A DNA stretch of 64,000 nucleotides. Source: Alphaproteobacteria bacterium (GTDB lineage: Bacteria; Pseudomonadota; Alphaproteobacteria; JBFXJJ01). The stretch covers positions 32,001 through 96,000 of the forward strand of contig JBFXJJ010000008.1 in the NCBI GenBank assembly GCA_050175015.1. Reading direction: 5' to 3'. A program made the position numbers and the translations under genes. The notes below the pieces were generated by a model. That model searched no databases. It was given only the letters and a program-made list of their open reading frames with translations, and was not told where the DNA came from. Numbering within the stretch: position 1 is the first letter of the stretch; each line of letters begins with the position of its first letter. Below are positions 3,606 to 53,084 of this stretch, one piece after another.

Positions 3606-3683
3606 GCACTCGTAGCTCAGTTGGATTAGAGTGTCGGCCTCCGAAGCCGAAGGTCGCAGGTTCGAATCCTGTCGAGTGCGCCA
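3606..3683 (+). tRNA. tRNA-Arg(CCG); integration site (attL) of the outer island
   Basis: Acceptor stem GCACTCG/CGAGTGC, anticodon arm TCGGC-CTCCGAA-GCCGA, T-loop GGTTCGAATCC, encoded CCA. Confidence 0.97.
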
Positions 3684-4046
3684 CTAATAATTTACTGATT
3701 TAATTAATTTATTTTTGTTTTTCGTTTTCGTGAAACAGCCCACAAAAACCCCTTGCGGGACAGTATGGGGACAAAATTTTTAAAAAATCTTGATAAATAC
3801 TAATTATCTACAACAATTAACAATTAAACCTTCAACGCAAACTTAAGCTTTTCCAAAAGATTTAGATTGTTGTTTTTTGTTGTTTATGGTTATTGATTGT
3901 CCCTTAGTTGTCCTTTTTAATACGTATTGCTAACAATATATCTTTTTAAAACAATATATTAGTGTATAAGATTGTCGGAATTATACTCTAATTGATTTAT
4001 TTAAAAATATAATCTATAATGATGTGCGATTTTTAAAGGAGAGGTT

Positions 4047-5111
4047 ATGGCAACGATTGAAAAAAGAGAAACAGGCAAAGGGCTTCAGTATCGAGTTAAA
4101 GTTCGCAAAAAAGGCTTTCCAGCTCAAACCGCAACATTTTCTCGCTTAACAGATGCTAAGAATTGGGCGAATGAAATTGAAAGTTCTATTGTTAATAACC
4201 GCTATTTTCCAACCAATGAGCTTCGCAAAAGAACGATATCCGATTTAATTGAAAGATATATCAAAGAGGTTTTATCTAAAAAACCAAGACGAGCTTATGA
4301 TGCTGTTCCTAAGCTTCGTTGGTGGCAGGAAAAAATTGGTTTATACACTTTGGCAGATTTAACAACCTCACTTCTTTTCGAAACAAGACAAAAACTTTTT
4401 GATGATGATATTAAAAACGGTAAGAAAAGAAGCAATACAACAGTTAATAAATATGCAACGGCTTTAAATACGGCTTTAAACATTGCGGTTAATGAATTGC
4501 AATGGCTTGAAAATAATCCAATGAATAAGATTAAGAAGTTGAAAGAGCCAAGAGGCAGGGTTCGTTATTTATCAGAAGAAGAAAAAAACTCATTATTGAA
4601 TGCTTGTAAGGAAAGCAAGAATCCGCATTTATTTAATGTTGTTTATCTGGCTTTAAGCACAGGAGCTAGATATGGCGAAATAATCAACTTAAAATGGGAG
4701 CAAATCGATTTTAACCGCAAAGTCATCACTTTATACGAAACTAAAAACGGCGAAATAAGACTTTTGCCTCTGGTGGGCAAGTCTTATGAATTAATGAGAG
4801 AGCATTCTAAGGTTAGAAGAATTGATAGTGATTTGGTTTTTCCAAGTGCGATAAAACCTCAAAAGCCGATTGAAATAAGAAAATCTTGGCTTAACGCTCT
4901 TGAAAAAGCAGGAATTGAAGATTTTAGATTTCACGATTTAAGACATTCAACTGCTTCTTATCTTGCTATGAATGGAGCAACTCTAGCCGAAATTGCAGAG
5001 GTTCTAGGGCATAAGACTTTGGAAATGGTTAAAAGATACTCACATCTATCCGAAGCCCACACCGCAGGCGTTTTAGAACGAATGAATCAAAAGTTTTTAG
5101 GTGAAGATTGA
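4047..5111 (+). CDS. Tyrosine recombinase/integrase of the outer island
   Basis: TGAR, FHDLRH, LGHKT, RY catalytic motifs; adjacent to tRNA attL. Confidence 0.95.
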   Translation: MATIEKRETGKGLQYRVKVRKKGFPAQTATFSRLTDAKNWANEIESSIVNNRYFPTNELRKRTISDLIERYIKEVLSKKPRRAYDAVPKLRWWQEKIGLYTLADLTTSLLFETRQKLFDDDIKNGKKRSNTTVNKYATALNTALNIAVNELQWLENNPMNKIKKLKEPRGRVRYLSEEEKNSLLNACKESKNPHLFNVVYLALSTGARYGEIINLKWEQIDFNRKVITLYETKNGEIRLLPLVGKSYELMREHSKVRRIDSDLVFPSAIKPQKPIEIRKSWLNALEKAGIEDFRFHDLRHSTASYLAMNGATLAEIAEVLGHKTLEMVKRYSHLSEAHTAGVLERMNQKFLGED

Positions 5112-5249: not shown

Positions 5250-5294
5250 CTCATAACCTGAAGGTCGTAGGTTCAAATCCTGCCCCCGCAACCA
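5250..5294 (+). repeat. 3' half of tRNA-fMet(CAT), attL of the inner element (not an intact tRNA)
   Basis: CTCATAACCTGAAGGTCGTAGGTTCAAATCCTGCCCCCGCAACCA; no D-arm or 5' acceptor strand upstream; imperfect copy at 34366-34410. Confidence 0.9.
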
Positions 5295-22696: not shown

Positions 22697-22780
22697 TCGT
22701 TGAGCAATGAAATTGCGAATAAGATAATCCAAGTTTGTTGGCAGGAGAAAAGTGATATTACTTTTCATGTCCTGCCTTCT
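22697..22780 (+). other. IncP/RP4-like origin of transfer of the inner IME (oriT1)
   Basis: CGTTGAGC..GCGAATAAG block, inverted repeat GGCAGGAGAAAAGTGA/TTACTTTTCATGTCCTGCC and variant nic TGTCCTG^C; homologous to 43031-43112 and 43378-43445. Confidence 0.75.
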
Positions 22781-26920: not shown

Positions 26921-28450
26921 TCACATACCCATACCGAAGCCATAGCTTTTGGATTTTTTTAAGGCAAGTTCTTTTTCTTCTAGGTGTTCTTTATAACTTT
27001 TTTGCATTTTTTGATAAAACTCATTGTTGGTTTTGAGGGTTTCTTTAATGGCTTTGTAAGTTTCATCATCTTTTTTAAGCTCGGGTTTTAGCTCTTTCAT
27101 CATTGCATCAATGGTTTTGCTTTTGGCTCGCTCGGCATTGAGCGTATCAGATATTTTATCATAAACAAAAGAAGGGATAATAACATTGCCGCCAAGTTCT
27201 TCAATGGCAACAACCTTTGGAACTGCATCTTTGCCATCTTCAAGATAATAGAATTTGTTTTCATTGTCATACTTAGCAAGGCTTTTAATCGCTTCTTGTG
27301 CTTCTGGTTTTTGAGGCATTTCAACATAAAAAATGGCTTTTTGTTTTTCTTCAGGTTTAACTTCGAGTTTTATTTCTGGTTTATGGGGTTCTGTTATGTG
27401 TCTGCTGGTTTTGCCAGTATTAAGAAACAAGGCGTTTATTAGTTTTTTCTGAGCAACAATAATTGCCATTGCAAATGGATCTTTTAAGGCTTCAGCCATT
27501 AAAAAATCTTTCCAAGTGTAAAAGGTTTTTTTGAGCAAGGATTGCTCTTTTGGCTTCTTTTTAACGGCTTGGTATTTCTGCCATAAAATAGGCGTGTTAG
27601 GGTGTTTGGTAAGTGGCTTTTCGGTATAGGTTCTTTTGGGTTCAACAATATTTTTTGATTCCTCAAATTTACCTAATCTTTTTTCCAAGGAGTTTTTAGA
27701 AAAACTCCTGTCTAAATCAGATGCTTTAATTGCAACTTTTTCATCTTTAGAAACTATCGCTAAACCGTTGCCTCTTTTTTTAAGAAGCAAACCAGCTTCT
27801 TCAAAAACATTATGTAAATCTTGCCATTTTTGGGCTTGGTTTAATGCTTTGGTTAAGGGTTCTTTTTGCTCTTTAACATAAGAATAAAAGCTTTGTTGCC
27901 AAGTTTTAGCCTCAAAATCTCTGGCTTTCTCGTGAGGTTTTTCATAATTTGGCTCTTTGGTTTTTTCAATACCGTTATCCGTTTTAAGATTATATTTCTT
28001 CTCCATATCTCGGCATACTTTTGAGCGTTTGTAATAATCGTTTGATAAGGTCGCAACGTTGAAAGTTTCAGGGTTTATTTTGTTATAGGCAATATGCATA
28101 TGAAAGTTATCGGTGTTTTGATGCGTGCCGACAACTCTTTGATGGGTTTCTATCCCTAAGGCTTTGGCAAACTCGCATTCAATTGCTTTTAAGGTTTTTA
28201 AATCAGGTTTTTCATCTTTAAAAGAAACTAATAAGTGATAGGTTTTATCAACTTTGCATCTGGTGTTTTTGCTTTGAGTGTTTTCAATATCAATAATGGC
28301 TAAATCTAAATCATCAATGGTTTCGCCAGCAATTGAGTTTACTATCCAAAAATCAGATAGTTTTTCGCCTTCGTCTTCTGCACCTGCAATATATTTAGCA
28401 AGCCTTCTAAAACTGCTCTTTGTTGTTCTTGGAATATGCTTAGAAATCAT
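26921..28450 (-). CDS. MOBP-family relaxase (RP4 TraI-like)
   Basis: RLAKYI (catalytic Tyr), TYHLLVSF, HQRVVGTHQNTDNFHMHIAYNKI 3H motif. Confidence 0.92.
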   Translation of the reverse strand: MISKHIPRTTKSSFRRLAKYIAGAEDEGEKLSDFWIVNSIAGETIDDLDLAIIDIENTQSKNTRCKVDKTYHLLVSFKDEKPDLKTLKAIECEFAKALGIETHQRVVGTHQNTDNFHMHIAYNKINPETFNVATLSNDYYKRSKVCRDMEKKYNLKTDNGIEKTKEPNYEKPHEKARDFEAKTWQQSFYSYVKEQKEPLTKALNQAQKWQDLHNVFEEAGLLLKKRGNGLAIVSKDEKVAIKASDLDRSFSKNSLEKRLGKFEESKNIVEPKRTYTEKPLTKHPNTPILWQKYQAVKKKPKEQSLLKKTFYTWKDFLMAEALKDPFAMAIIVAQKKLINALFLNTGKTSRHITEPHKPEIKLEVKPEEKQKAIFYVEMPQKPEAQEAIKSLAKYDNENKFYYLEDGKDAVPKVVAIEELGGNVIIPSFVYDKISDTLNAERAKSKTIDAMMKELKPELKKDDETYKAIKETLKTNNEFYQKMQKSYKEHLEEKELALKKSKSYGFGMGM

Positions 28451-28767
28451 AGCTCCTCAATCTTAGCCTTTAAAATTGCTCGTAAATCTGCAATAGCGTT
28501 AATATGTTTGTTTAACTCTTCAGGATAAAAATTTTCATCAAGAGCAAGTTTAAACAGATTACCCAGCCTTGCTAAATCAGCATTGATTTTTAATAAATCA
28601 GATATAGCTTGTTGCTTGCCAATGTTAGGCAAGGGAATATTTAAAACCGCAAATCTTAAAAGCTCTGATTGTGATAAATTATAAGTTTTAGCTAACTCAA
28701 CCAGTTTATCTTTTTCTTGCCTATTAAGATAAACAAGGCTTGCTATGTTTCTTTTATCTGGTTTCAT
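28447..28767 (-). CDS. mobC: MobC/TraJ-like relaxosome accessory protein
   Basis: RHH-like N-terminus (LSQSELLR) and LLKINADLARLGNLFK; overlaps the relaxase start. Confidence 0.85.
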   Translation of the reverse strand: MKPDKRNIASLVYLNRQEKDKLVELAKTYNLSQSELLRFAVLNIPLPNIGKQQAISDLLKINADLARLGNLFKLALDENFYPEELNKHINAIADLRAILKAKIEEL

Positions 28768-28769
28768 GG

Positions 28770-29087
28770 CTAAAGCTCTTCATCAGGAATTTTTCTCTTT
28801 GGATCAAAATGAAACTTTTTAATCTCGTGAGGATTATCAGAGCTTAATCTTTTTTCTTCTGCTTCTTTGCGGGCTAAAAGCCTTAAATCTTCAGGGTGCA
28901 TAAAATCTTTTAGATTGATGTGCTTTTTGATAAATCGATAAAAAGATGCTTTAGAGCAGGTTATTTCTCTTTTTTCCTTTAGCTCGTTATAAATGCTATG
29001 CCTTGTATAGCCTTGTTTAAGCAAAAGCCTGATTTTGGCAGTTTTTGCGATTAGTTCATATCTAACTTGGGCGTAATATTTAGTCAT
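28770..29087 (-). CDS. traK: TraK-family oriT-binding protein
   Basis: IRLLLKQGY...IYNEL....ITCSKASFYRFIKKHI...FHFDP pattern of the TraK family; upstream of mobC-relaxase. Confidence 0.75.
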   Translation of the reverse strand: MTKYYAQVRYELIAKTAKIRLLLKQGYTRHSIYNELKEKREITCSKASFYRFIKKHINLKDFMHPEDLRLLARKEAEEKRLSSDNPHEIKKFHFDPKRKIPDEEL

Positions 29088-32854: not shown

Positions 32855-34159
32855 TTATTTATTTTCCAGTTGTTCAATAATATTAACCGCATCATCAATC
32901 GATTTTCTGATAGTATCTTGTTGAAGTCTAGCATAAACTTGGGTTGCTTGTTGCGACTTATGCCCTAAGGTTTTGCCGATAATTTCTAGGCTAACGCCGT
33001 TCATTGCTTGATAGCTTCCAAAGGTTCTTCTTATGTCGTGAAGTCTAACGTCCATTAAACCTTGCGGAAGAGCAATCTTTCTTTTTTTTGCTTCTCTTTT
33101 AACCGCATTAAAAATTCTTAAAACCGTGCAGGCATAGTTATCTTGGCTTTTTACTTCGGTTTCAACGTCATCAACTAATTGAGCTAAATTTGGGTCTTGT
33201 TTCCAAATAGCTATCGTTGCTCTTTTTCTAACTCTTTCCCAAGCCTTTCTTGGATCTTTATAGTAGTCATCAGCTTCATCATTGGCAAATACCCATTCAG
33301 AATTAGAGCTAATTTTGCGTTTTTTTAAAATATCAATAGCTTTTCTGGTTAAGGGTAGGGTGAGCGGGTCTCCGTTCTTGGTTTCTGGAATACGCCATTC
33401 TTCACGTTCCCAATGGATTTCTTCCCATTTCATAGTTAGAACGTTAGTTTTTCTTGCTCCTGTTAAAAGCGACATAAAAATATAATCTTTAGCGGTTTCG
33501 TTTTCTTCTTCTTTTAGGGCATCAAGCAAAAAGGGCATTTCTTGATGTTCAATAAACCTATCCCTTGATTTTTCTTTAAACTTTTTAATTCCATTTGAAG
33601 GGTTTTTGCCGTCCCAACCCCATTCAATAGCCTTGTTAAAAATAGCTCTTATTCGCTCTAAAATGCGGTTTGCCTGATAAAGCCCGTTTTCGTCTTTAAT
33701 TTTGTTATGAAGTTGTTGGATTTCATATTGTGAGATAGTCGAGATTTTGCGATTTAACCAATGAGATAAAAACTTATTAACTTCTCTTTCGTCATATTGC
33801 CAAGAGCGTTTATGTGGTTTGCTATATCGTTCCATATAATCTTTAAAAAGGTCTTTGAAGGTAGCTTCTTTTTGCATTTTGTGTTTATGCTCAAGAGGGT
33901 GAGTGCCTTCTGATATTTTAGCTTTAGCAATGGTTGCTTTTTTTCTAGCATTTTCAACCGTCATATCAGGAAAACTGCCAAGAATAACTCTTTCATCTTT
34001 GCCATCAATTCTTTTGCGAACAAAAAAAGATATAACCCCAGTAGAGGTTATATAAAGCTGTAAGCCTTTTTCTTTGGTGTCTTTATAAACCTCAGTTCCT
34101 TTTGATGGGGCTTTTAAACTTTGGATTGATGCTTTGGTAAAATTAAAAACTTTAGTCAT
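32855..34159 (-). CDS. P4-like tyrosine integrase of the inner IME
   Basis: N-terminal arm-binding domain (DTKEKGLQLYIT..G.ISF...LGSFPDMTVENAR); TGAR, LHDIRRT, LGHKS, VYA. Confidence 0.95.
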   Translation of the reverse strand: MTKVFNFTKASIQSLKAPSKGTEVYKDTKEKGLQLYITSTGVISFFVRKRIDGKDERVILGSFPDMTVENARKKATIAKAKISEGTHPLEHKHKMQKEATFKDLFKDYMERYSKPHKRSWQYDEREVNKFLSHWLNRKISTISQYEIQQLHNKIKDENGLYQANRILERIRAIFNKAIEWGWDGKNPSNGIKKFKEKSRDRFIEHQEMPFLLDALKEEENETAKDYIFMSLLTGARKTNVLTMKWEEIHWEREEWRIPETKNGDPLTLPLTRKAIDILKKRKISSNSEWVFANDEADDYYKDPRKAWERVRKRATIAIWKQDPNLAQLVDDVETEVKSQDNYACTVLRIFNAVKREAKKRKIALPQGLMDVRLHDIRRTFGSYQAMNGVSLEIIGKTLGHKSQQATQVYARLQQDTIRKSIDDAVNIIEQLENK

Positions 34160-34365: not shown

Positions 34366-34410
34366 CTCATAACCTGAAGGTCGCATGGTTCAAATCCTGC
34401 CCCTGCAACC
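34366..34410 (+). repeat. Degenerate tRNA-fMet 3' half, attR of the inner element
   Basis: CTCATAACCTGAAGGTCGCATGGTTCAAATCCTGCCCCTGCAACC, followed by an AAGCCCG/CGGGCTT hairpin. Confidence 0.88.
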
Positions 34411-34553: not shown

Positions 34554-35387
34554 CTATTGATTTAAATTAGAGATGTTAGATACTAAATTATAAATAAACC
34601 AACCATCTCCTGTAATAAATGTCTGAGGTTTAGCACTCACGCCATCTTTATGAACACCTAAGCCGTCAGAATAAGGTATAAAAGAAACTATTTTATTGAA
34701 ATTAATTCTAAAGTTTTTTCTAGAACCTCCAAAATAAAGATTTTTATTTGTAATAGCTAATATCCCTGTATCGGCATATAAAGATTGCTCCGTTTGGATT
34801 CTTTCTCCTTTAAAGGCTCCTGTTCTATAATAAACACCTTTTGCAATGCGAATACTAAAACCACTGGAGCATCCGACATAATGTGTTTTTGTTTTTTGTT
34901 CGATATAATCAACATTTTGAAATATCCATATCAAGCTTTCGTTTTTTTGAAAATTAAAAGGTAAATTTCCTTCTATGGTTATTTTGTTAGGGATTTCTCC
35001 ATTTATGAGAGTTCTAATTACTGTTCCTTTAATTAGTTTTGTATAGTAACCGTTGTTGTTGACATCATATTGGGTTAAAGAAAATTTTTCTAAAATATCG
35101 CATAACAGGTTTTCTTCTTCTTCCGAAACCAGATCATCTTCAAAGGCAGTATCAATTGATTTTTCCCAACCAGTAGAGATAAAAAGTTTTTTATCAAAGT
35201 CTTTAATATAGCTAGAATCACATATTTCTTTAATATTATTAACCATATTGGTAATGTTTTTTGATATAAATGCGTTATGAATAATATCTATAACAGCATT
35301 TTTTCCTTCTAGATATTTTCTTTCACATTCTTTATGTTTTTTTCTAAGAAAACCAGCATCTTCTCCGCAATATTTACAAATGCCCAT
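34554..35387 (-). CDS. Hypothetical protein (N-terminal Cys/His knuckle, C-terminal PH-like domain)
   Basis: CKYC...HKEC; DTGILAITNKNLYFGG. Confidence 0.55.
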   Translation of the reverse strand: MGICKYCGEDAGFLRKKHKECERKYLEGKNAVIDIIHNAFISKNITNMVNNIKEICDSSYIKDFDKKLFISTGWEKSIDTAFEDDLVSEEEENLLCDILEKFSLTQYDVNNNGYYTKLIKGTVIRTLINGEIPNKITIEGNLPFNFQKNESLIWIFQNVDYIEQKTKTHYVGCSSGFSIRIAKGVYYRTGAFKGERIQTEQSLYADTGILAITNKNLYFGGSRKNFRINFNKIVSFIPYSDGLGVHKDGVSAKPQTFITGDGWFIYNLVSNISNLNQ

Positions 35388-35432
35388 AATGTCTCCATTA
35401 TTTTATGATGTATCACAAAAATTATATTGAGA

Positions 35433-35615
35433 TTATTTGTTTTTTTGATTTATTTCTTTTTCTAACTCTTCAAATTCTTCAGGGTCGGCATAGGCAATCT
35501 TGCCGTCTCGCCAGACAACAAGTTTTGTGCCAGTTTGTTTGGCAATTTTGATAGCCTCTAAACCGCCAGCTTTTATACCTTCAAGAATTTTATCAGTATT
35601 AATTACATCTAACAT
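35433..35615 (-). CDS. Small partner of the zeta-toxin-like kinase
   Basis: 60 aa, AKQTGTKLVVWRDGKI, 3 nt downstream of the kinase. Confidence 0.65.
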   Translation of the reverse strand: MLDVINTDKILEGIKAGGLEAIKIAKQTGTKLVVWRDGKIAYADPEEFEELEKEINQKNK

Positions 35616-35618
35616 AGT

Positions 35619-36206
35619 TTAAATCTCGCTTTCTTTAAGGATATTATCCCATATTTCTTTATTATAAACAATAATTTCGTTCTTTTCCTTCTTTGCTATC
35701 AGCTTGCCAGAATGAGGATCAACATTGTTATAAATTAAAGCCTTATCGGCAATAGGCAGATAATGATTGATAAGGTTTACAAAGCCTCTTTTATATCTGC
35801 GGATAATATCTTGTTTAGGTATATCGTGTCCGCCTTGTGAGACTCTTATTTTTACTCGTTCAATTGCCATATCAGAGGAAGGCAACCATAAAAAGATAAG
35901 TCCTATGGTATAACCACCTTCTTTAGCTTTTTTTAACTTGTCAAAAAAGGTTAGGCTTGAGCAGGTAGTTTCAAAAGCAAAGCTCTTTTTTGAAGCCATA
36001 AGACTGTCTATGCGGTTTAACATAAGTTTGCCTGCGGTTATGGCTTGCCCTTTGGGGTTAAGGGGATTTAAACCTCTTGCTATTTCATCGGCGTTTATAA
36101 ATTCATACATCGATAAAAACTTGGGAAGAAGAGTCATTGCGGTTGTGGTTTTGCCCGAACCGTTTGCCCCTGAAATCATGTAAATTGTTGGATTTTCATC
36201 TTTCAT
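35619..36206 (-). CDS. Zeta-toxin-like P-loop kinase
   Basis: SGANGSGKTT, FINADEIA, FAFETT, RVSQGGHDIP. Confidence 0.85.
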   Translation of the reverse strand: MKDENPTIYMISGANGSGKTTTAMTLLPKFLSMYEFINADEIARGLNPLNPKGQAITAGKLMLNRIDSLMASKKSFAFETTCSSLTFFDKLKKAKEGGYTIGLIFLWLPSSDMAIERVKIRVSQGGHDIPKQDIIRRYKRGFVNLINHYLPIADKALIYNNVDPHSGKLIAKKEKNEIIVYNKEIWDNILKESEI

Positions 36207-36209
36207 AAA

Positions 36210-39200
36210 TTAAACCTCACTCTCTTTATCTTTTTCAGTATCTGCTTCAATCACAGCTTTTATGTCTGCAATATGTTTTTTGGTAAAATATATTTTCATA
36301 TCTTTATCAGCTAAAACTACTTCAAGTTCATTTCCTTCAATTTCTTTAAACATTTCCAATATCAAATCATCAGAATCGTTTGCATGACAGAACATGGCTG
36401 AGTGATTAGGACAAAGAGCTAAATAATTTTGATAATGTCTTTTTTCTAAATCACTTCTTAAAAATTCGGTGGTCTCAAAATAGTAATTCCCATCTTTTAA
36501 TTTAAAAGGCAATTCCTTTTGGCATATTTGACATATCATTTTGCCGTCTGGGTTTGTGTATTGACTGATTAAATAATTTTTTGCTTCTTTTTTTACATCT
36601 TCACGGTTTGTTGATACTGAGCGAGTTCTTTTTTCGAATGTCCTTTCTGGGGCACTAGAGGCTTGTGCTCTAACTCTTTCTCTTCTTCTTTCTGGGTTTA
36701 ATGGCTCATCTTCTGGTAATTCAAAATTATCATCTTCTTCTTTTTCGGCTAAAATTCTTTCTTGTTCTTCTTCAGGTAATTCTGCAAAACGTCTCGCTCT
36801 TTCGGCTGAAGCAATATCTTTAAAACCTAGTTTTTTGGCGGCTTCTTCTTTCTCCTTTTTTTGTTCTAGTAATTTTAGTTTTTCTTCTATTTGTTTTTTT
36901 GATTTTTCTTCTTCTTCTAATTCTTCTTTTGTCGGCTCTCTTTTTGCGTTAAAGCCAAAATTTATAGCAAGCAAAAAGTTGTCGCCTTTATCATAAGAAA
37001 AGCCCTTTGGCAGCAAATCGCTAAAAGCCTTGTTTGGGGTTACAAAACTTATTTCTTTTGTTTCATTTTCTTGAGGTATCCATTCATTATTTTTAAGCAC
37101 TTTGATTAGGGTTGATTCTGCCATTCTTGGATCTACTGAACCATTGGGCTTATAAGATGCTTCAACTATATTTTGATACCACCAGTAATCTTTAGAAAAT
37201 GACGAGTCATTATTTTTAAGCGTATTCCATATTAGTTTAGAAACATTAATCTCTTTTTCTCCTAATACCTTTTCAAGATTGGGAATATGCCAGTCTTGAA
37301 AAGATTCATAATCTGTTACTCGTCCAGAACAAGACCAAACCAAGTTCCGTTGAAGACTTTTATCTTCTTGTTTTTCTATTGCTAGTTCAGTTTTAACACC
37401 CACATTTTTAAAAAAATCAACAAGTTTTTCTTTTTCAATTTTAAGCTTTAAATATTTATTGGATATTTTATGCAAATTATGACCTTCAAATGCAGAATAA
37501 AAAGCACTTAAGTTTGTTTCTTCATACGGGCTATCAATATATAATTGCTCAATTTTTCTCCACTTACCATTTTCACAAAGAATAATATAAGACTCTTCAA
37601 ATAAATCGGTTTCATCAGGATTTTTTTCTAAAAAATCAATAAAAATTTTAATGTCTTCAATTTTGGAAAATCTATTGCCAATCCAATACCGTTCTTTTAA
37701 AAAACACTCTATATATTCTTTCTCTCCAAACTCTCTAACGCCCATTTTTTCTAAAAATAATTTGGCATTTTTTTGCTCTGCTTGGTTTTTTCCTAAAGAA
37801 TATGTTTTAGGTTCAACTGTTGGGTAAGTATTTTGTTTTCTTTCTTCATTATAAAAAAAGCATTCATTTTCCGAGTTAAAATTACCATCAGTTAATTTTA
37901 TAATTTTGCATTTTTTAAGTTGCCATAAACTTGAATAGTCTTTTTCTACTATTTCATATAAAAAAGCATAAAAGTTTTGAAGCCATTCGTTAGTTTTTTT
38001 GCTTAGCCATTCTTTTGAAGTTTCTTCAATTTCATTTTTTGTATACTTTGCAGTCAAAGTTTTTATTAAATCTTCTTTATCCCATTTCTTTATTTGTAAG
38101 CTATTAAGAAACTTATCAGCATTATCACTTCTCTGCCGTGATGACATAACCCATAAAGGAGGCTGTTCATCATAATCAAAAAGAAATTCCATATCCTCAT
38201 TGGATAGCAAATCCTTTAATTTTCGATCTCCTTGCAATAAATATTTAGCAGGATAATGTGTTCGACAAAATGTGGGAGTTAATGCTTCATTGTTCATTTT
38301 ATCAATTATTTTTTCTCTGATTACTTCGTATTTATCAGAAATGTCGTCATCTCCATTAGGTAAAACATTTAAGAAATCGGTGTTCAAAAGATTTAAATCT
38401 TTGATTCTATGTAATGATTGAGCGGTTAAATCAGCTAATTGTTCATATAAGGAATCGTTTGCAGGGGTGTTTTTAATACTTGCTCTGCTTAATTCGGGAA
38501 CAAATGGTGCGTGGAGATGGAATCTTAATCCAGATATTTCTTTTTTAGCAGGGAAGAAAACGGAAACATTGGCAGGCTCGGCAACAACAATTTTCACTTG
38601 ATTTGATAAATCGTTATTAGCGTTAAATTCTTTTACCCCAGCTAAAAAATCAAGCGGAAAAGCAATGGCAACTTTTTGTTTTTCTAAACCTTTGACTGGA
38701 GCATCAAACTTTAGAAAATGTGAGCTTTCAGTGGTTTTACCATTTATTTGTTTTAGAATTTCAATATGGTTTGGAGAGTGTTTTGTTCTTAAAACTTCAC
38801 CAGATGTTTCTGATAAAATTTTCCAGCTAATTGTTTCAATGTTATTTAAGAATAGCAAAGTTGTTTCTTCAAGCTCGTTTAGCCCATCCTTGATTTCTTC
38901 AAAAGCATCTTCTTGGCTTTTTTTGTGATTATTAAATGGAAATTCAAATTTGGTTTTTTTTGAATTAATAGGACTTAATTCAAAAGGTAAAACCAAATCT
39001 GTTATTTTAAAGGAAAATGTAGGAGACCATATATGAGGTGTTTCAGAGTATGCAAAAACAGCTTTAAATCCTATTCCAAATCTTCCTATTTTGTCGTTGT
39101 CATCTGCCTTTGTTCCTTCGCCAATATCTGTAATTGCAAGAATATCTTTCTCATCAAAAGGTCTGCCGTTGTGTTCGAATATCAGTTTGTTATTATGTAA

Positions 39201-39374
39201 TGTAAAAGTTACGTCTTTAGCTTCGGCATCTTCTGCATTTTGCAATAGTTCGTATATAAAATGAGCACTATCTGGGTATAAGTCTTCAACGATTTTTCTT
39301 ATACCAGTGTGTTTTTTCAAAACCCGAGCTAATTCGTCTCGTTCCTCAACTCTTATTTTTTCTATGATATTCAT
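36210..39374 (-). CDS. Sacsin-like GHKL ATPase with C-terminal HNH-like/Zn domain
   Basis: ELLQNAEDA, HNGRPF, IGRFGIGFKAVF GHKL motifs; C-terminal CQICQ...LALCPNH; start taken at MNIIEK. Confidence 0.8.
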   Translation of the reverse strand: MNIIEKIRVEERDELARVLKKHTGIRKIVEDLYPDSAHFIYELLQNAEDAEAKDVTFTLHNNKLIFEHNGRPFDEKDILAITDIGEGTKADDNDKIGRFGIGFKAVFAYSETPHIWSPTFSFKITDLVLPFELSPINSKKTKFEFPFNNHKKSQEDAFEEIKDGLNELEETTLLFLNNIETISWKILSETSGEVLRTKHSPNHIEILKQINGKTTESSHFLKFDAPVKGLEKQKVAIAFPLDFLAGVKEFNANNDLSNQVKIVVAEPANVSVFFPAKKEISGLRFHLHAPFVPELSRASIKNTPANDSLYEQLADLTAQSLHRIKDLNLLNTDFLNVLPNGDDDISDKYEVIREKIIDKMNNEALTPTFCRTHYPAKYLLQGDRKLKDLLSNEDMEFLFDYDEQPPLWVMSSRQRSDNADKFLNSLQIKKWDKEDLIKTLTAKYTKNEIEETSKEWLSKKTNEWLQNFYAFLYEIVEKDYSSLWQLKKCKIIKLTDGNFNSENECFFYNEERKQNTYPTVEPKTYSLGKNQAEQKNAKLFLEKMGVREFGEKEYIECFLKERYWIGNRFSKIEDIKIFIDFLEKNPDETDLFEESYIILCENGKWRKIEQLYIDSPYEETNLSAFYSAFEGHNLHKISNKYLKLKIEKEKLVDFFKNVGVKTELAIEKQEDKSLQRNLVWSCSGRVTDYESFQDWHIPNLEKVLGEKEINVSKLIWNTLKNNDSSFSKDYWWYQNIVEASYKPNGSVDPRMAESTLIKVLKNNEWIPQENETKEISFVTPNKAFSDLLPKGFSYDKGDNFLLAINFGFNAKREPTKEELEEEEKSKKQIEEKLKLLEQKKEKEEAAKKLGFKDIASAERARRFAELPEEEQERILAEKEEDDNFELPEDEPLNPERRRERVRAQASSAPERTFEKRTRSVSTNREDVKKEAKNYLISQYTNPDGKMICQICQKELPFKLKDGNYYFETTEFLRSDLEKRHYQNYLALCPNHSAMFCHANDSDDLILEMFKEIEGNELEVVLADKDMKIYFTKKHIADIKAVIEADTEKDKESEV

Positions 39375-39375
39375 T

Positions 39376-42300
39376 TTACATTTTTCCCGAAACTTCAATA
39401 ACTCCAAAAATTATAGGAGTTGCTCTTATGTCCCCGCTATTTGAAGTCTGCTCAAGCTCTTTCATTCTTCTATCAAAATCTGCATTTGCTCGTGCTAACT
39501 CTGCTTCTTTCATAATCTTAATTTTATCGTTATTTGCCTTTTCTAGCTGGGCTTCTATCGTTTTACATCTTGCCCTGTGGCTAATGGTTAGGCTTTGCAT
39601 TTTATGTTCAACCAGCTCTTTGTTTAAAGAAAAATGTTCGTTTTTCTTTTCTAACCATTTTTGATAATGTAGGTCTTCAAGTTTGTTTAAAATGCTCTCG
39701 TTCAATTCCAACTTAATATCAGCATTTCTTGCTTGAGAAATTATGTTTAATAGTCTTTGTTCTAGAGCAATGTCATCGGTAATAGAAACTAGCATTTCTT
39801 CGTTTTTAATGCCTGATTTTAACCATTTGTATATGGCAAAATAGTATGTTCCTGATTTTAAGTCGGCATCTTCTAAAGCTAATTTAGTTTTTTTGATTTC
39901 TTTGATTTCAAAGAATTTTGCTGATTGTTTTATTAATGGGTGAAAAACTGATAAATAAACAATGTCTGGGTTGTCTTTGGCTATTTCTTGTTCAAATGTT
40001 ATAGAAAGACTAGGCTTGTTTCCCTTAAGCCATTTTTCCCATTCTCTATGCTGTGGATCGTTAGAGTTATATATGGCTTTTAAATCACTTAACAATAAAT
40101 CTCTGGCTTCTTGGCTTAATTTAAGATTTTTAATATCTTTTTCTCCAGAAATATGATTGTCTTCGTTTTTTAATTTATTGCATAAATAGCTATTCAAACA
40201 GTTTTGTAAATAATTGGGAGATAAGAAAGAATTTTCAGCATCATCTAAGTCGTTTTGCCAAGAACTTTTAGGGATATTTAAGCCAAAAAACTCTGATTGT
40301 TTTTCTTCCAAATTTTGCTCTTCTTGGATAAGTCTGATCTTATTATCTGCTAGCTGTTGTAACCTGTTTTTTCTTTCCTCATCACTTAAATTAAAGTTTT
40401 CTGCAATTTCCTTAATTTCTTGGTTTATTTCGCCAAGAATTTCTTCATTACCGCCGACTGTAGATTGAAAAACGCCTATACGCCATAAGCATCTTTCATA
40501 TATATCACCATCTACGGTATTGGGAGTTACTAAATTAATGATGGCAACGGTTTCACTTTTCTGCCCATATCTATCAATACGACCTATTCTTTGTTCTATA
40601 CGCATAGGATTCCAAGGCAAGTCATAGTTAATTAGTAAATCACAAAATTGGAAATCTAAACCCTCACAGCCAACCTCAGATGATAACAAAACATCTATGG
40701 CATTTTCATTTTCTTTAGGCATAGAAAACCGTTTTCTTAAGTCTGCTCGGTCTTCGTCTTTTATATCTCCATGAATTAAAGCAACCCTGATATTGGCTTT
40801 TTTTGTTTTTTCATAAAGATAATTTAATGTGTGCCTGAATGTGCTGAAAACCATAGCCTTGTTGTTTTCAAGGTTGTGTTTATCTAATAGGACTTTTATA
40901 AAAGCCTCAGCTTTTGGATCATAAGGGTCTAATGTTTTGGCATCTTCTATTATTTTTGAAATATCGGTTTTTATCTCATCTATAAAGTCGTTGTTATATA
41001 AAAAATCCTCATATTCATCGTTGGCATAGTTATCACCGTCTAACAAGCTAAGTCTTTTGTTTAAAATATCCGATAGCGTAGGGACAAGAGCGTAAATACA
41101 ACTTGAGGCTTGTCTTCGTATTGTTGTCATTAAAAACTTAACGAAACGTTCTCCGTGATAATAAGCTAAAATCTTTCCAACAATTTCAAGCAATTTATCG
41201 TGAAGATATTTTTGGTCTTTTGTAAACTCAACTATAATAGTTTCAGGTTTTCTTGTGGTGAAATTTCCAATATCCCTTCTTCTTGTTCTGTTTATGATGG
41301 AACTGAAAGTGTAAATTTCTTCAAGATTCTTAATGGTTTTTATTCGTTCGTTATCAAGTATCTTATGTTCTTTCAAGCCATCATATGTTTTTTGAAACAA
41401 AGGGTTCTCTCTTATAAACATTCTGCCCCATTCAGTATTAGCAACACTTTCAAGTGCAACAATAGCTTCTTTGTTCCAATCTTTGTTAGCTGTTCTGCAA
41501 CAGCTTATAGCTTTGTTAATGAAAATATTGGGGGCTGCCATTTGAGAAAAGCTGTTTTTATCTATAACTAGGTCTGGTCTTAAGACGTTTAGCAAAGTAA
41601 AGAGGTCTTCACTGCCGAGTTGAACAGGGGTTGCAGTTAAAAGTAAAACAGCTTGAGCGTTATCACATAAAAAACGAACGCCATTATGTAGCAAAGTGTT
41701 CTGGTTTCTAATATGATGAGCTTCATCAACAATTACTAAATCAAATTTAGGTGGAGGATCAAGTTCTAACAAACCATAATCTTTGCTTTTGCCTCGGCCT
41801 TGTTTGCCAAACAGGTTGTCTGAATCAAAAAGAGAGAAAGGCATAATTGCTTTAGAATATTTATGAGGCCATTCGCCTTCTAAATAAGTTTCTTGAATAC
41901 AGCTTCTTAACAAAGAACCATCTATAGAAGAAAAATCTTCATTAAAACGCTTCATTTCTATTTGCCACTTTTTCTCTGCCACAAGGGCTTTTGGACACAT
42001 AACTAAAATAGAAGATATATCCATTCTTGCTTGTAATTCTTTGATAATTAAACCAGCCTCAATTGTTTTACCAACACCCACCTCATCAGCAATTAATATG
42101 CGAGGTCTATCACTGCGAATCAACTTCATAACAGGTCTATATTGGTATGGAACAAAATTTACTCTGCCCATTCTAAGAGAAAATAGCTCTTTAAAAGATG
42201 GGGATAATATTTGAGAGCTTGTGAGATATGCCTCTAATTCTTTTTTGTTGATAATTTCAGATTTAATTTCTGGTAAGTTTTTAGATTGAAGTTGGCTTTC

Positions 42301-42936
42301 ATAATATGTTGCTATGGTATTGTTTTGAAAAACCTTATATCGTTTTTCTACGCCATCTATTATTTCTATAATTGGAAAAACTGAATTTTCATCTGAACGC
42401 AAACAAACAACATCACCCACTCTAAATAAAGAAACTTGTTTTTTTTCAAGATTATTGTTTGTCGGACTATCTTCGGCAGAAACTGAATTTTTCAATTCTT
42501 TTTGTTGCATTTCTGCAAGAGATTTTTGCTTGGTATCATTTATTATTTTTATGGTTTCATTTTTAGAGCCTAACGTTTTTAATAGTCTTTCAAGCGTGTC
42601 TGCATCTCTATAAAGTTCATTGGCAGGAACATCTTCAGATGATAAATGAGCCCACTTGTTTCTGACATTTTGCAACTCTTTTAGCCAATTTCTAGCCTCT
42701 CTTGGTAAATTGATGATAGATGTAATCTCATACCAGTTTTGATCTAAAATTCTTAACAATGCAGCAAAGTCTAGCTGTTCAAGACTTTTTACATTTTTTT
42801 CCCTTATTATTCGTTGTTGCTGAAAACTAAGTCTTTCGATAACGCTTTTTTCCCACCAGTTAGAATCTGTTTTGGGTAGAATGTCATTTAAAAAAACGGT
42901 TAGGTCTTTAGTTGCTAAAGAAATTAAATCAATCAA
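39376..42936 (-). CDS. Swt1-like HEPN + SNF2 (RapA-like) helicase
   Basis: LDFAALLRIL...RNKWAH (Rx4H); ADEVGVGKT, DEAH, LTATP, GCEGLDFQ, WNPMRIEQRIGRIDRYGQ; TTG start with AAGGAG RBS. Confidence 0.85.
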   Translation of the reverse strand: MIDLISLATKDLTVFLNDILPKTDSNWWEKSVIERLSFQQQRIIREKNVKSLEQLDFAALLRILDQNWYEITSIINLPREARNWLKELQNVRNKWAHLSSEDVPANELYRDADTLERLLKTLGSKNETIKIINDTKQKSLAEMQQKELKNSVSAEDSPTNNNLEKKQVSLFRVGDVVCLRSDENSVFPIIEIIDGVEKRYKVFQNNTIATYYESQLQSKNLPEIKSEIINKKELEAYLTSSQILSPSFKELFSLRMGRVNFVPYQYRPVMKLIRSDRPRILIADEVGVGKTIEAGLIIKELQARMDISSILVMCPKALVAEKKWQIEMKRFNEDFSSIDGSLLRSCIQETYLEGEWPHKYSKAIMPFSLFDSDNLFGKQGRGKSKDYGLLELDPPPKFDLVIVDEAHHIRNQNTLLHNGVRFLCDNAQAVLLLTATPVQLGSEDLFTLLNVLRPDLVIDKNSFSQMAAPNIFINKAISCCRTANKDWNKEAIVALESVANTEWGRMFIRENPLFQKTYDGLKEHKILDNERIKTIKNLEEIYTFSSIINRTRRRDIGNFTTRKPETIIVEFTKDQKYLHDKLLEIVGKILAYYHGERFVKFLMTTIRRQASSCIYALVPTLSDILNKRLSLLDGDNYANDEYEDFLYNNDFIDEIKTDISKIIEDAKTLDPYDPKAEAFIKVLLDKHNLENNKAMVFSTFRHTLNYLYEKTKKANIRVALIHGDIKDEDRADLRKRFSMPKENENAIDVLLSSEVGCEGLDFQFCDLLINYDLPWNPMRIEQRIGRIDRYGQKSETVAIINLVTPNTVDGDIYERCLWRIGVFQSTVGGNEEILGEINQEIKEIAENFNLSDEERKNRLQQLADNKIRLIQEEQNLEEKQSEFFGLNIPKSSWQNDLDDAENSFLSPNYLQNCLNSYLCNKLKNEDNHISGEKDIKNLKLSQEARDLLLSDLKAIYNSNDPQHREWEKWLKGNKPSLSITFEQEIAKDNPDIVYLSVFHPLIKQSAKFFEIKEIKKTKLALEDADLKSGTYYFAIYKWLKSGIKNEEMLVSITDDIALEQRLLNIISQARNADIKLELNESILNKLEDLHYQKWLEKKNEHFSLNKELVEHKMQSLTISHRARCKTIEAQLEKANNDKIKIMKEAELARANADFDRRMKELEQTSNSGDIRATPIIFGVIEVSGKM

Positions 42937-43030
42937 AAGATTCTCCTTAACTCAACATAAATTTAAAATATCGAACCAAAATTATAATAGTTATATTAAG
43001 TTTTAAAGTCGATATTTTTACTAAAATAAA

Positions 43031-43112
43031 TCGTTGAGCAATAAAGTTGCGAATAATGATTTTCCCATTAGGGCAGGATTAAAGTAGTATTACTTTTACT
43101 ATCCTGCCTTCT
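43031..43112 (+). other. IncP/RP4-like origin of transfer (oriT2)
   Basis: CGTTGAGC..GCGAATAA block, inverted repeat GGGCAGGATTAAAGTAG/TTACTTTTACTATCCTGCC, canonical MOBP nic TATCCTG^C at 43106/43107. Confidence 0.82.
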
Positions 43113-43230
43113 AAAAGTGTGAGAAATTTTGAGACATTATAAAAATTGATAAATTTTAAAAAAGCCTTTGTTTTCTAGGTATTTAAAGCGTTAAATATTC
43201 AAAACTGATTAATAAGGGCATCAAAATGTC

Positions 43231-43350
43231 TCAAGAGTCTTGAAAAGTCTTAATAATTCTTAATTTTTCTTAAAAAATCTTAAAATTTCTTAAAGTGTTT
43301 CAAAAAGTCCTAAAAATTCTTAAAAAATCTCAATTTGTTTCAAATGTCTT
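43231..43350. repeat. Degenerate 10-bp tandem array (about 12 units, consensus TAAAAAWTCT) between the two oriTs
   Basis: tgaaaagtct taataattct taatttttct taaaaaatct taaaatttct taaagtgttt caaaaagtcc taaaaattct taaaaaatct in exact 10-bp register. Confidence 0.85.
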
Positions 43351-43377
43351 AAAGTTTTTGAATTTTCTCATCAATTT

Positions 43378-43445
43378 GGAGGGCAGGATAGTATCAGCAA
43401 TATTGCTGATAAATTTTGAGGGCTTATTCGCCTTCAGCTCAACGA
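43378..43445 (-). other. IncP/RP4-like origin of transfer, inverted relative to oriT2 (oriT3)
   Basis: GGGCAGGATAG, palindrome TATCAGCAATATTGCTGATA, CTTATTCGC...GCTCAACG in the same order as the RP4 oriT core; nic on the minus strand at 43384/43383. Confidence 0.82.
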
Positions 43446-43591
43446 TAAAAACCTACGGGACACTGTAGGGACACTTTTTTATAAAAACGGGTAAAAATGG
43501 GCAAAAAATGACAATCTCTCTTTTTTCACAAGAGCTTGGTTTTCTTATTGTTTTTGATTGTAAGCGGTTGATATTATTGTCTTTTTGAGAA

Positions 43592-43638
43592 CTCCGAAGC
43601 CGAAGGTCGCAGGTTCGAATCCTGTCGAGTGCGCCACT
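43592..43638 (+). repeat. attR of the outer island (duplicated tRNA-Arg 3' end)
   Basis: 47-bp exact copy of 3639-3685. Confidence 0.95.
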
Positions 43639-50645: not shown

Positions 50646-50669
50646 GCTTTTGTTTATAAGAGTTTTATT

Positions 50670-51095
50670 TTGCCGCAATCCATAAGATTGACGCATCAGT
50701 TTCAATCCACGCCTCTGCACGAGGGGCGACATGTTAAAAGCGAATGGGTTTTCCCCTCAAGCGATAATGTTAAACATCTTGTCGGGCTTCCCAGAACATT
50801 TAAAAGCATTTGTTCTATGCAAGATGTAGAGACTAGCGAACCATTTTTAACCAAAGAAATTACGCTTCATACTTTAAGACATAGTTTTGCAAGCGTTGCG
50901 GCTGATATGGGATTTACCGAATTAACTATTGCGGGGCTTTTAGGTCATAGCTTGGGCGGGGTTACTAACCGTTATAGTCATAATGTTGATTCAAGTCTGA
51001 TAAATGCGGCAGATAAAATTTCTTTGCGGATAGAAAATGCTCTAAACGGCAAAATGGAAGAAGAAAACAAAATTATAGAATTTAAACGGGGCTAA
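50670..51095 (+). pseudogene. C-terminal fragment of a tyrosine integrase
   Basis: EWVFPS, LHTLRHSFAS, LLGHS, RYSH present; N-terminal domains and first catalytic Arg missing. Confidence 0.8.
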
Positions 51096-52053: not shown

Positions 52054-52098
52054 AAACTCTTATGCTCATTAATTAGGTATTGACTTTTGGAGATAGGT

Positions 52099-53031: not shown

Positions 53032-53084
53032 TCTAGAAGACATTATCAGTAAAAAAAAAGCTTATAAATTTTACTCTTAGTCTC

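Follow-up and report, generated by a model that had tools for sequence, protein, structure and literature searches.

Two facing IncP-like oriT cores with different predicted hairpins in a tRNA-Arg genomic island of an alphaproteobacterium

Do two origins of transfer (oriTs) that face each other across an array of 10-bp repeats make up a single bidirectional origin, or are they two separate origins placed side by side? This question is raised by a locus at positions 43,031 to 43,445 of a 64,000-nucleotide stretch (hereinafter, the window) of contig JBFXJJ010000008.1 from an alphaproteobacterium (assembly GCA_050175015.1). The initial annotation favored the former answer, with one TraK platform serving both sites. 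The relevant features of the locus, along with a third oriT of the window, are as follows.

43032..43108, plus strand: oriT2 core, type II, with CGTTGAGC, GCGAATAA, a hairpin at 43070-43108 and the predicted nick at 43106|43107
43109..43227, plus strand: oriT2's own leading segment, TTGATAAATTTT ... AAAGCCTTTGTTTT, 119 bp
43228..43357, minus strand: phased array, 13 x 10 bp, TTAAGA/TTGAGA on the minus strand, the probable leading-side array of oriT3
43382..43444, minus strand: oriT3 core, type III, compact format, with a hairpin at 43392-43411 and the predicted nick at 43384|43383
22698..22776, plus strand: oriT1 core of the nested element E2, type I hairpin, GTCCTG|CC, recognized by pattern, by IncP alignment and by its fold (-12.1 kcal/mol, z -4.2)

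Read directly, oriT2 has the structure CGTTGAGC-N9-GCGAATAA-N43-CTATCCTGCC on the plus strand (43032-43108) and oriT3 the structure CGTTGAGC-N6-GCGAATAA-N33-CTATCCTGCC on the minus strand (43444-43382), with the nick core CTATCCTGCC, which fits the IncP/MOBP11-type form YATCCTG|Y, at 43099-43108 (+) and 43391-43382 (-), respectively. The pattern CGTTGAGC-N4-12-GCGAATAA-N25-55-TCCTGCC has three matches in the window, namely, oriT2, oriT3 and oriT1, and none in any of 100 dinucleotide shuffles of the window. Both nick positions are predicted by analogy with the IncP site, ATCCTG|C. The nicks so predicted are 277 bp apart and the cores stand head to head, in good agreement with the facing plus- and minus-strand sites separated by ~270 bp that had been described initially.

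The two cores differ in the hairpin next to the nick. In oriT2, GGCAGGAT...ATCCTGCC fold around AAAGTAGTATTACTTT so that the nick core lies within the stem (-9.9 kcal/mol, z -4.1 for the DNA fold); in oriT3, an 8-bp stem, TATCAGCA/TGCTGATA, ends 2 nt ahead of CTATCCTG (-6.2 kcal/mol, z -3.6). These unlike folds confirm that the nic-proximal inverted repeats differ, as the initial annotation stated. The 9 nt that precede the nick, ACTATCCTG, are the same in both sites, the identity across the 45 nt 5' of the nick is 64%, and the longest inverted match between the two sides spans 47 nt at 74%. Different hairpins beside an identical 9-nt sequence fit two accessory-protein specificities, which is consistent with the two TraJ-type specificities originally proposed. 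In contrast to its closest relative in this genome, the compact oriT3 is devoid of a distal GGCAGGAT arm, has a 6-nt spacer between CGTTGAGC and GCGAATAA, a length found in 2 of 75 sites outside this genome, and spans 35 nt from GCGAATAA to TCCTG (36 nt or less in 6 of the 75 outside sites); given the missing arm and the rare spacer, this site could be weakened. Judging from the sequence, oriT2 and oriT3 appear to be two complete IncP/MOBP-type oriT cores with a predicted transfer function.

A MAFFT alignment with two IncP-1 references, R751 (NC_001735) and pBS228 (NC_008357, IncP-1alpha), shows that CGTTGAGC, GCGAATAA and TCCTGCC are invariant in both plasmids and in all three sites of the window, with the similarity confined to these boxes, so that the likeness to RP4 noted initially holds against real IncP-1 sequences. 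A blastn search (distant mode) started with positions 43000-43480 against 72,556 plasmids, which is unsuited to a conserved core this short, retrieves 42 records, none of which covers 80% or more of the query, with the best E-value of 0.4. According to PMC7314908, TraJ of RP4 binds a 19-bp inverted repeat located 8 bp from nic, TraK binds a curved region of ~200 bp, and the same oriT also contains divergent traJ/traK promoters and repressor sites. As in RP4/RK2 and R751, which employ a TraI-TraJ-TraK relaxosome (MOBP11), CGTTGAGC, GCGAATAA, an inverted repeat and ATCCTG|CC follow each other here in the same order; the inverted repeat of both oriT2 and oriT3 is located just 5' of the nick, in the position of the RP4 TraJ site, and a helically phased leading side is found 3' of the nick, in the position of the RP4 TraK region. 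By this positional analogy, the 10-bp array appears to be the counterpart of the curved TraK-binding region of RP4. The genome also encodes TraI-family relaxases that score above the NCBIfam cut-off, TraJ-family proteins of PF21983 and divergent TraK-family proteins of PF17273. Unlike the IncP-1 plasmids, the locus is chromosomal, in a genome with 32% GC and in an island without tra genes of its own, and has two origins instead of one; the nick core of oriT2 lies inside the hairpin stem, oriT3 is compact, and the leading side is built of sequence repeats, TTAAGA every 10.0 bp, rather than of A-tract curvature alone.

The locus belongs to an island, E1, with the following features.

3606..3683, plus strand: tRNA-Arg(CCG), integration target of E1, the sole tRNA that ARAGORN finds in the window
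3639..3685, plus strand: attL core, a 47-bp exact direct repeat, the longest exact match between the ends
4047..5111, plus strand: int1, tyrosine integrase of E1 (PF00589, E 1.2e-35)
34554..42936, minus strand: E1 cargo, annotated with Pfam and PADLOC
43457..43473, plus strand, second copy at 3757-3773: GGGACA-N5-GGGACA, read directly, candidate integrase arm sites of E1
43592..43638, plus strand: attR core, a 47-bp exact repeat of the tRNA-Arg 3' end

Thus, E1 is bounded by 47-bp tRNA-Arg repeats at both ends, with int1 adjoining attL, and the composite between these repeats is 40 kb long, including the relaxase of E2. The cargo consists of an unknown 276-aa ORF, a zeta-like kinase, a TmtA-like sacsin/HATPase protein and a DrmD-like SNF2 helicase with an N-terminal HEPN domain; the PADLOC scores of the defense-like proteins are 369.7 bits for DrmD and 229.3 bits for TmtA. 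The oriT2/oriT3 pair is located at the right end of the island, where it borders on the DrmD-like operon, at its 5' end, and on the att site. The geometry given initially, with oriT2 leading via attR into icd-acnA, is correct; oriT3 leads into the island. Tandem islands with an att site between oriT2 and oriT3 were considered and rejected because there is no tRNA-like repeat between the two. Outside E2, E1 contains no match to PF03432, PF21983 or PF17273 and has in common with the rest of the genome only int1, whose paralogs on contigs C3 and C21 (80% and 71% identity) adjoin NikA-like and relaxase genes, and the oriT modules. Lacking relaxase, TraJ and TraK genes, E1 proper would qualify as an oriT-only hitcher.

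The nested element E2, to which oriT1 belongs, comprises the following additional features.

5250..5293, plus strand: left border, a tRNA-Met(CAT)-3'-half-like direct repeat, read directly
26921..28450, minus strand: MOBP relaxase of the TraI/MobA(P) family (NF041893, 335.9 bits, cut-off 250; PF03432 and TraI_middle)
28447..28767, minus strand: TraJ/NikA-like ribbon-helix-helix protein (PF21983, 40.5 bits, cut-off 27)
28770..29087, minus strand: TraK-like small protein, divergent PF17273 (E 0.0017, under the cut-off)
32855..34159, minus strand: int2, P4-type integrase (PF00589 and Arm-DNA-bind_3)
34366..34410, plus strand: right border, a tRNA-Met-3'-half-like repeat, read directly

We infer that E2 is a 29-kb mobilizable element nested in E1, with its own relaxosome genes and oriT, where the nesting is delineated by imperfect 44/45-nt repeats. 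The E2 relaxase shows 39% identity to the N-terminus of R751 TraI. The TraJ-like protein belongs to the same family as R751 TraJ (76.5 bits with PF21983), and its best NCBIfam match is TraJ, PRK13877, with an E-value of 9.6e-8, under the cut-off of that model. The TraK-like protein is more divergent: R751 TraK scores 100.5 bits with PF17273, and a BLASTP comparison of the two proteins yields an E-value of 7e-6; hhalign gives a probability of 54% (E 1.3e-4). Another TraK-like protein is encoded at C20 6340-6579. Among the relatives of this protein detected by an HMM search, 18 of the 24 scanned match PF17273, 12 of them above the cut-off; a word-index protein search finds four matches, all in this genome or near it.

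Central to the relationship between the two origins is the array, which covers 130 bp of the 277-bp interval separating the predicted nicks. It comprises 13 register positions spaced exactly 10 bp apart (TCTTAA units as read on the plus strand), 10 of which form a chain of hexamers under the strict pattern T[TC][AG]A[GA]A, close to the previous count of about 12 degenerate repeats in exact register. The AA/TT phasing of the array, with a period of 10.0, is among the top 14 of the 6,387 scanning windows of the 64-kb stretch. Across the 2.53 Mb of the genome, phased TTAAGA arrays of at least five units are confined to three sites, and three shuffled genomes contain none. In each of these three cases, on which the orientation argument depends, the array lies 3' of the nick and on the strand that is nicked; in two of the cases, the oriT is a single one. 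From the nick on, the array in the window aligns with that of one such single site, C20:29951, with 78% identity over 150 nt, compared to a background of ~60%. The homology to a single site, combined with the nicked-strand orientation, indicates that the array belongs to oriT3 alone; it is thus best interpreted as the native leading-side array of the minus-strand oriT3 and not as a platform for both origins.

Moreover, oriT2 possesses a leading segment of its own, shortened to 119 bp, which is homologous to the leading side of another site, C20:11714, as far as window position ~43163 (78% over 144 aligned nt) and includes the AAAGCCTTKGTTT element that reappears in the leading sides of other sites. 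Both this segment and the behavior of the arrays speak against the claim that one TraK platform serves two origins. The lag-10 self-identity of the leading side is 0.56 for oriT3 and 0.53 for oriT2, where the latter value takes in the inverted array. Helical phasing of the leading side extends beyond this genome: within 200 nt on the 3' side of the nick, self-similarity peaks at a lag of 10, 11 or 20-22 in ~78% of the 79 sites analyzed; z>3 is reached by ~38% of these sites and by 0 of 77 control flanks from the 5' side. The remaining top-ranked AA/TT-phased windows of the stretch fall in the leading region of oriT1.

Altogether, the genome contains nine such oriT sites (eight exact and one with a single mismatch) that represent four hairpin types and adjoin relaxase genes where relaxases exist. 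The closest relatives of the pair are located on C20, where the site at 11714 shares 28 identical nick-proximal nucleotides with oriT2 and the site at 9631 shares 26 with oriT3, while the flanks have diverged to ~75-78%. The C20 island that carries these twins also lacks a relaxase, and its type II and type III sites are arranged back to back, 2 kb apart, with nothing shared, around a reverse transcriptase (RT) gene. The possibility that this RT belongs to a group II intron was rejected given that there is no Rfam match and that PADLOC identifies it as a type I-C retron RT-Toprim. The site C20:29951 is composite: its upstream half is 97% identical to that of the C3 site, whereas its downstream half is 78% identical to that of oriT3 and 60% to that of C3, with the switch no more than ~6 nt past the nick. 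These alignments suggest that upstream (U) and downstream (D) oriT halves have been reshuffled at the nick in this genome.

IncP-type TraI, TraJ-like and TraK-like genes do exist in this genome. As possible helper parts, it encodes six close MOBP relaxase paralogs along with three distant PF03432 matches, eight NikA/TraJ-like, four TraK-like (under the Pfam cut-off) and three coupling-protein genes, and has one VirB4 match, on C9; MobC, invoked by the initial annotation, was not found. No relaxase or TraJ-like gene is located beside any type II or type III site of the genome; by elimination only, the NikA-like genes on C21, C47 and C34, where the contigs end, are possible type II/III helpers.

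Other genomes contain the three-box oriT architecture as well, at no fewer than 120 loci. A facing pair was not detected among the 80 genome loci examined from these matches, one of which (L057) has a back-to-back pair, nor in three viral loci or in 400 genomes of the same class, which have at most two exact sites each vs the eight found here. When metagenomes were scanned for facing pairs in which these 11-mers lie 258-288 bp apart, a narrow pattern that would miss other spacings or nick-proximal bases, two loci were returned, both long plain palindromes without oriT boxes. The locus is absent from all 40 nearest genomes, which belong merely to the same class; the best outside match in this set (E 3.5e-4) involves short AT-rich or oriT-box pieces.

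Elements with two oriTs, or with an oriT but no relaxase, have several precedents. The plasmid pBuzz was reportedly described by Moran and Hall in 2019 as having two inversely oriented oriTs. As cited in PMC11389934, small E. coli plasmids of the pBuzz/pKL1 type are, like the island analyzed here, relaxase-less and carry two inversely oriented oriTs, an arrangement thought to widen the range of helpers; these are 1.5-2-kb plasmids with oriTs from different plasmid families, whereas E1 is an island integrated at a tRNA gene, and its two oriTs, both from the IncP-like family, are distinguished by hairpin type alone. Two origins in one element are found also in R6K/IncX and ICEclc. In R6K, two oriT copies reside in long inverted repeats, kilobases apart, and are served by the element's own TaxC relaxase; the E1 oriTs, in contrast, differ in their hairpins, face each other at 277 bp, lack long inverted repeats, judging from the identity values given above, and belong to a carrier without a relaxase. 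ICEclc is self-transmissible, unlike E1, and has two functional oriTs, for which the question of how interference is avoided was already raised (PMC5812530; PMC3402527). Another parallel is provided by the oriT-only ('iOriT') genomic islands, which are common according to the preprint by Ares-Arroyo et al. 2026 (10.64898/2026.01.13.699239) on six nosocomial species. As proposed for E1 proper, these islands combine an oriT with an integrase and att sites, lack genes for a relaxase and for mating, and have defense genes near the oriT; 85% of the oriT-bearing islands contain a single oriT. The main text of the preprint, in the passages covered, does not describe two oriT subtypes facing each other.

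How, then, should the facing layout be interpreted? A purpose-built bidirectional origin, in which one TraK-type platform on the array would activate both nicks, allowing transfer of the island or of the flanking chromosome in either direction with either helper, seems improbable. In its favor, a single stretch with strong phasing separates the two facing cores, DNA that is curved and wrapped might conceivably act on both sides, types II and III also occur together on the C20 island, and the oriT2 twin on C20 has no long array (z 2.0), so that oriT2 might profit from a borrowed one. Nevertheless, all three arrays of this type in the genome lie 3' of a nick on the nicked strand, two of them at single sites, one of which has an array homologous to the one analyzed here; the C20 sites stand back to back; and neither the genome and viral searches nor the metagenome scan produced a comparable pair. 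There is equally little to recommend a selected convergent cassette, whose array, once wrapped, would license nicking of either strand with two helpers, and with it a putative bidirectional origin and putative Hfr-like chromosome transfer both ways from tRNA-Arg while the island is integrated. A recombination scar, with one oriT or neither functional and the pairing a by-product of shuffling among IncP-like elements, free of any selected function, deserves somewhat more credence but still appears unlikely. Intact conserved boxes and a stable hairpin in both cores, the 26-28 nt kept identical to the twins next to diverged flanks, and the occurrence of the compact format outside this genome all argue against this reading; conversely, the genome is an outlier in the number of exact sites, U and D halves are demonstrably reshuffled, the leading side of oriT2 is truncated, oriT3 is compact and devoid of the distal arm, and most oriT-bearing islands make do with a single oriT (10.64898/2026.01.13.699239).

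That these sequences are not oriTs at all but a divergent promoter/operator of the defense operon, or integrase arm sites, is very improbable. The region does abut the DrmD-like operon and the att site, the GGGACA repeats adjoin it, and the oriT of RP4 houses divergent promoters and repressor sites (PMC7314908). However, a consensus promoter scan finds two sites vs 3.6 expected, an Rfam scan of the region gives no match, and the full set of three boxes, including the hairpin and the nick core, is repeated at all nine sites of this genome, near relaxase genes where these are present, and in the many loci of other genomes.

We consider it probable that E1 is a dual-specificity oriT-only hitcher of the 'iOriT' type, with two separate, complete origins that have hairpins of types II and III; the facing layout is unusual whereas the strategy of hitching with helper elements is already known. 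Under this scenario, E1 would be excised by int1, a resident helper element would supply the TraJ-like protein that binds the hairpin of either oriT2 or oriT3, a MOBP relaxase would cut at ACTATCCTG|CC, and the helper's type IV secretion system would export the strand, such that two hairpin types would make two helper relaxosomes usable by E1. The juxtaposition of oriT2 and oriT3 would be a product of modular reshuffling of U and D halves at the nick, and E2 would have inserted into E1 afterwards.

If both origins work, E1 would be a minimal chromosomal island that hedges between two helper relaxosomes belonging to one family, with the accessory-protein hairpin swapped and the relaxase core kept. 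Recombination of U and D halves exactly at the nick is the footprint expected of a relaxase that initiates at one oriT and terminates at another, and helically phased arrays 3' of the nick appear to characterize the IncP-like oriT family as a whole. Both nick-point recombination and phased arrays could help to detect and classify the oriTs of genomic islands. The established principles of conjugation are left unchanged by these observations. Next to the pair, the GGGACA-N5-GGGACA copy at 43457..43473 overlaps a terminator-like hairpin.

The region 43031-43445 contains two inverted oriT cores, as a direct reading of the sequence confirms. Taking the leading side of an oriT as the DNA 3' of the nick on the nicked strand, the features of this region are:

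43032-43108, plus strand: oriT2 core, with CGTTGAGC, 9 nt, GCGAATAA and a hairpin region with CTATCCTGCC at its end
43109-43227: leading segment of oriT2, homologous to the leading side of a twin site, C20:11714 (position 11714 on contig C20 of the same assembly)
43228-43357: phased array between the two nicks, with an exact 10-bp spacing over 13 register positions
43444-43382, minus strand: oriT3 core, with CGTTGAGC, 6 nt, GCGAATAA, a hairpin unlike that of oriT2, and also CTATCCTGCC at its end

The composite pattern CGTTGAGC-N4-12-GCGAATAA-N25-55-TCCTGCC has three matches in the window, the third being oriT1 (22698-22776), and none in 100 dinucleotide-preserving shuffles of it. If the strand is cut behind the G of ATCCTG, the RP4 position, which we take to apply here too, the predicted nicks lie at 43106/43107 (plus strand, oriT2) and 43384/43383 (minus strand, oriT3), with 277 bp between them, and the leading strand of each heads for the other origin. 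DNA folding bears out the difference between the hairpins that the initial annotation had pointed to: in oriT2, GGCAGGAT pairs with ATCCTGCC around a AAAGTAGTATTACTTT core and the nick core lies within the stem, whereas in oriT3 an 8-bp stem, TATCAGCA/TGCTGATA, stands 2 bases ahead of CTATCCTG.

The assignment of these sites to the RP4 type holds on alignment. With R751 (IncP-1beta) and pBS228 (IncP-1alpha) as references, each represented by the region between traJ and traK, CGTTGAGC, GCGAATAA and TCCTGCC are invariant columns across the two plasmids and oriT1, oriT2 and oriT3, and in all five sequences an inverted repeat follows the second box and precedes the nick. The likeness to IncP oriTs is restricted to the conserved boxes, and a blastn search of the locus against 72,556 plasmids gives no significant match. 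The same architecture is widespread, turning up in at least 120 stretches from many Proteobacteria and others when one genome per species is scanned. Among the 75 distinct outside sites listed, the CGTTGAGC-GCGAATAA spacer is 4-12 nt (6 nt in two), the distance from GCGAATAA to TCCTG is 28-55 nt (36 nt or less in six), and the dinucleotide before TCCTG is TA in 33, CA in 24 and TG in 15. Because the same formats occur among these outside sites, the compact format of oriT3 and the GTCCTG core of oriT1 appear to be natural minor variants, not products of decay.

Self-similarity at the helical period (10-11 bp), limited to the first 200 nt on the leading side, is a trait of the IncP-like oriT family. 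Across 79 sites (77 from the outside loci listed, plus R751 and pBS228; those whose extracted locus had under 180 nt of leading side were left out), the lag of best self-similarity in these 200 nt is 10, 11 or 20-22 for about 78% of the sites, and z exceeds 3 for about 38%; on the 5' side, 200 nt taken as a control give z>3 in 0 of 77. Such phased leading sides fit the curved region of about 200 bp that TraK binds in RP4 (PMC7314908).

The initial annotation had read oriT2 and oriT3 as one bidirectional origin served by a single TraK platform on the central array. The array itself is distinct: 10 of its 13 positions satisfy a strict hexamer chain, and for AA/TT phasing with a period of 10.0 it is in the top 14 of 6,387 windows along the 64 kb, the others of these 14 falling in the leading side of oriT1. 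Phased TTAAGA/TTGAGA arrays of at least five units occur in exactly three places in the genome, and in none of three shuffled genomes:

oriT3: the central array
C20:29951: a single site, with the array starting right after the nick
C4:195800: a single site on contig C4, with the array about 190 nt after the nick

At all three sites the array is 3' of the nick on the nicked strand. Over the first 150 nt past the nick, oriT3 and C20:29951 are 78% identical, compared with about 60% for unrelated pairs, and the homology begins no more than about 6 nt from the nick. Given the common orientation at three sites and the homology to the single site C20:29951, the central array can be assigned, by orientation and by descent, to oriT3. 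The segment 43109-43227 in turn belongs to oriT2, whose leading side is 78% identical to that of C20:11714 over 144 nt aligned and includes a AAAGCCTTKGTTT element also present in other leading sides. Thus, judging from sequence comparison, the central 277 bp appear to be two abutting leading sides and not one shared platform, and the reading as a shared platform and bidirectional origin is, as a whole, not supported.

The facing pair is 146 bp from attR of a 40-kb island. The only tRNA gene in the window, tRNA-Arg(CCG) (3606-3683), has its last 47 bp repeated exactly at 43592-43638; the island lies between these repeats, with icd, acnA and gltA as the right flank. Direct repeats at 5250-5293 and 34366-34410, resembling the 3' half of tRNA-Met(CAT), enclose a 29-kb relaxase-bearing element, E2, which from these repeats is probably nested inside the tRNA-Arg island. 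E2 encodes a P4-type integrase, a DUF3631 primase-like protein, TraK-like and TraJ/NikA-like ORFs, a MOBP relaxase (NF041893, 336 bits, cut-off 250) and several defence genes, and carries oriT1. The remainder, E1, consists of int1 (4047-5111), the two facing oriTs and four cargo genes, two of which encode a DrmD-like SNF2-HEPN helicase and a TmtA-like protein. Family searches find no relaxase, TraJ-like or TraK-like protein encoded in E1, and only int1 and the oriT modules are in common with the rest of the genome. The motif GGGACA-N5-GGGACA is present at 3757-3773 and 43457-43473, just inside both ends of E1, as candidate integrase arm sites.

In E2, the small ORF that precedes the TraJ-like gene appears to be a divergent TraK. 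It matches PF17273 below the cut-off (E 0.0017; R751 TraK scores 100.5 bits), and comparison with R751 TraK gives a BLASTP E of 7e-6 and with TraK an hhalign probability of 54% (E 1.3e-4). A profile run against 1.84 billion proteins yields 26 matches; PF17273 is detected at E<=0.01 in 18 of the 24 scanned (a protein of this genome and another, 845 aa long, were left out), and 12 of these 18 are over the cut-off.

The whole assembly (2.53 Mb, 49 contigs, 99.4% complete) has eight exact-pattern oriT sites, none for the reversed control pattern, and a ninth with one mismatch. In the same class, 4 of 400 other genomes contain the pattern (1, 1, 2 and 1 sites, at most two each), none with two sites on one contig, and this locus is absent from the 40 nearest genomes, all related at class level only. 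The sites fall into four hairpin types:

Type I: contigs C2 and C3, oriT1 of the window, C20:29951
Type II: oriT2 of the window, C20:11714
Type III: oriT3 of the window, C20:9631
Type IV: contig C4

Relaxase genes are found a few kb from sites of types I and IV but not from those of types II and III. The genome encodes six close MOBP relaxase paralogues (69-86% identity to that of the window, 37-42% to the R751 TraI N-terminus), three distant PF03432 matches, eight NikA/TraJ-like proteins, one VirB4 and three coupling proteins.

The upstream and downstream halves of these oriTs have been reassorted: the half of C20:29951 upstream of the nick is 97% identical to that of the C3 site, and the downstream half follows oriT3. 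In oriT-specific recombination, a relaxase initiates at one oriT and terminates at another, and the switch at the nick may be the trace of such an event. Types III and II also occur together on a defence island of C20, at 9631-11797, back to back and 2 kb apart, enclosing a type I-C retron RT-Toprim gene (PADLOC, 738 bits). This island has an integrase, HipBA, MmeI, and TraK-like and TraL-like genes upstream, and no relaxase; two hairpin types are thus carried together on relaxase-less islands twice in this genome, in E1 and on C20.

Among the 80 outside loci listed, one, from a Rhodospirillaceae MAG (L057, 601-960), has an inverted pair, back to back and 100 bp apart, with a 10-bp AGTTGGCA array on the leading side of one member; none has a face-to-face pair. 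Viral contigs contain three single sites, and a metagenome scan for a pair of this particular format returns two loci, both palindromes, so the facing layout is so far peculiar to this locus. Two or more oriTs per element, as in E1, are known from IncX/R6K, with two in long inverted repeats (PMC3402527), from ICEclc (PMC5812530), from small plasmids such as pBuzz ("two inversely oriented oriTs" in a title cited in PMC11389934) and from pEC156, named there among carriers of multiple oriTs. Searches of open-access papers turned up no account of two IncP-like subtypes facing each other on a chromosomal island. A preprint (10.64898/2026.01.13.699239) recently described oriT-only genomic islands at scale, reporting just one oriT in 85% of oriT-bearing islands and defence genes clustering near oriTs. 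E1 is best read as a putative oriT-only hitcher of dual specificity, which modular oriT shuffling would have produced.

Several other features were noted. In E2, a 45-nt direct repeat (23697-23741 and 26917-26961, 93% identity) copies the 3' end of the relaxase gene and encloses a double-Cache chemoreceptor gene (24607-26769) and a toxin-antitoxin pair, with the appearance of a 3.2-kb cargo insertion. Past gltA, a second, decayed island may occupy 49585-56701: the segment includes a partial integrase (50670-51092), one pentapeptide and one ankyrin-repeat protein, an HTH gene along with an N-terminal fragment of HipA, and a DUF6782 peptidase. Outside the window, a CRISPR-like array (C21:24640-24956, at the end of locus L031), whose roughly 36-nt repeat has the form GTAGTCCCCCGTTATATGGGGGTAGTCTTCAAC and at least five copies up to the contig end, directly follows a truncated MOBP relaxase gene.
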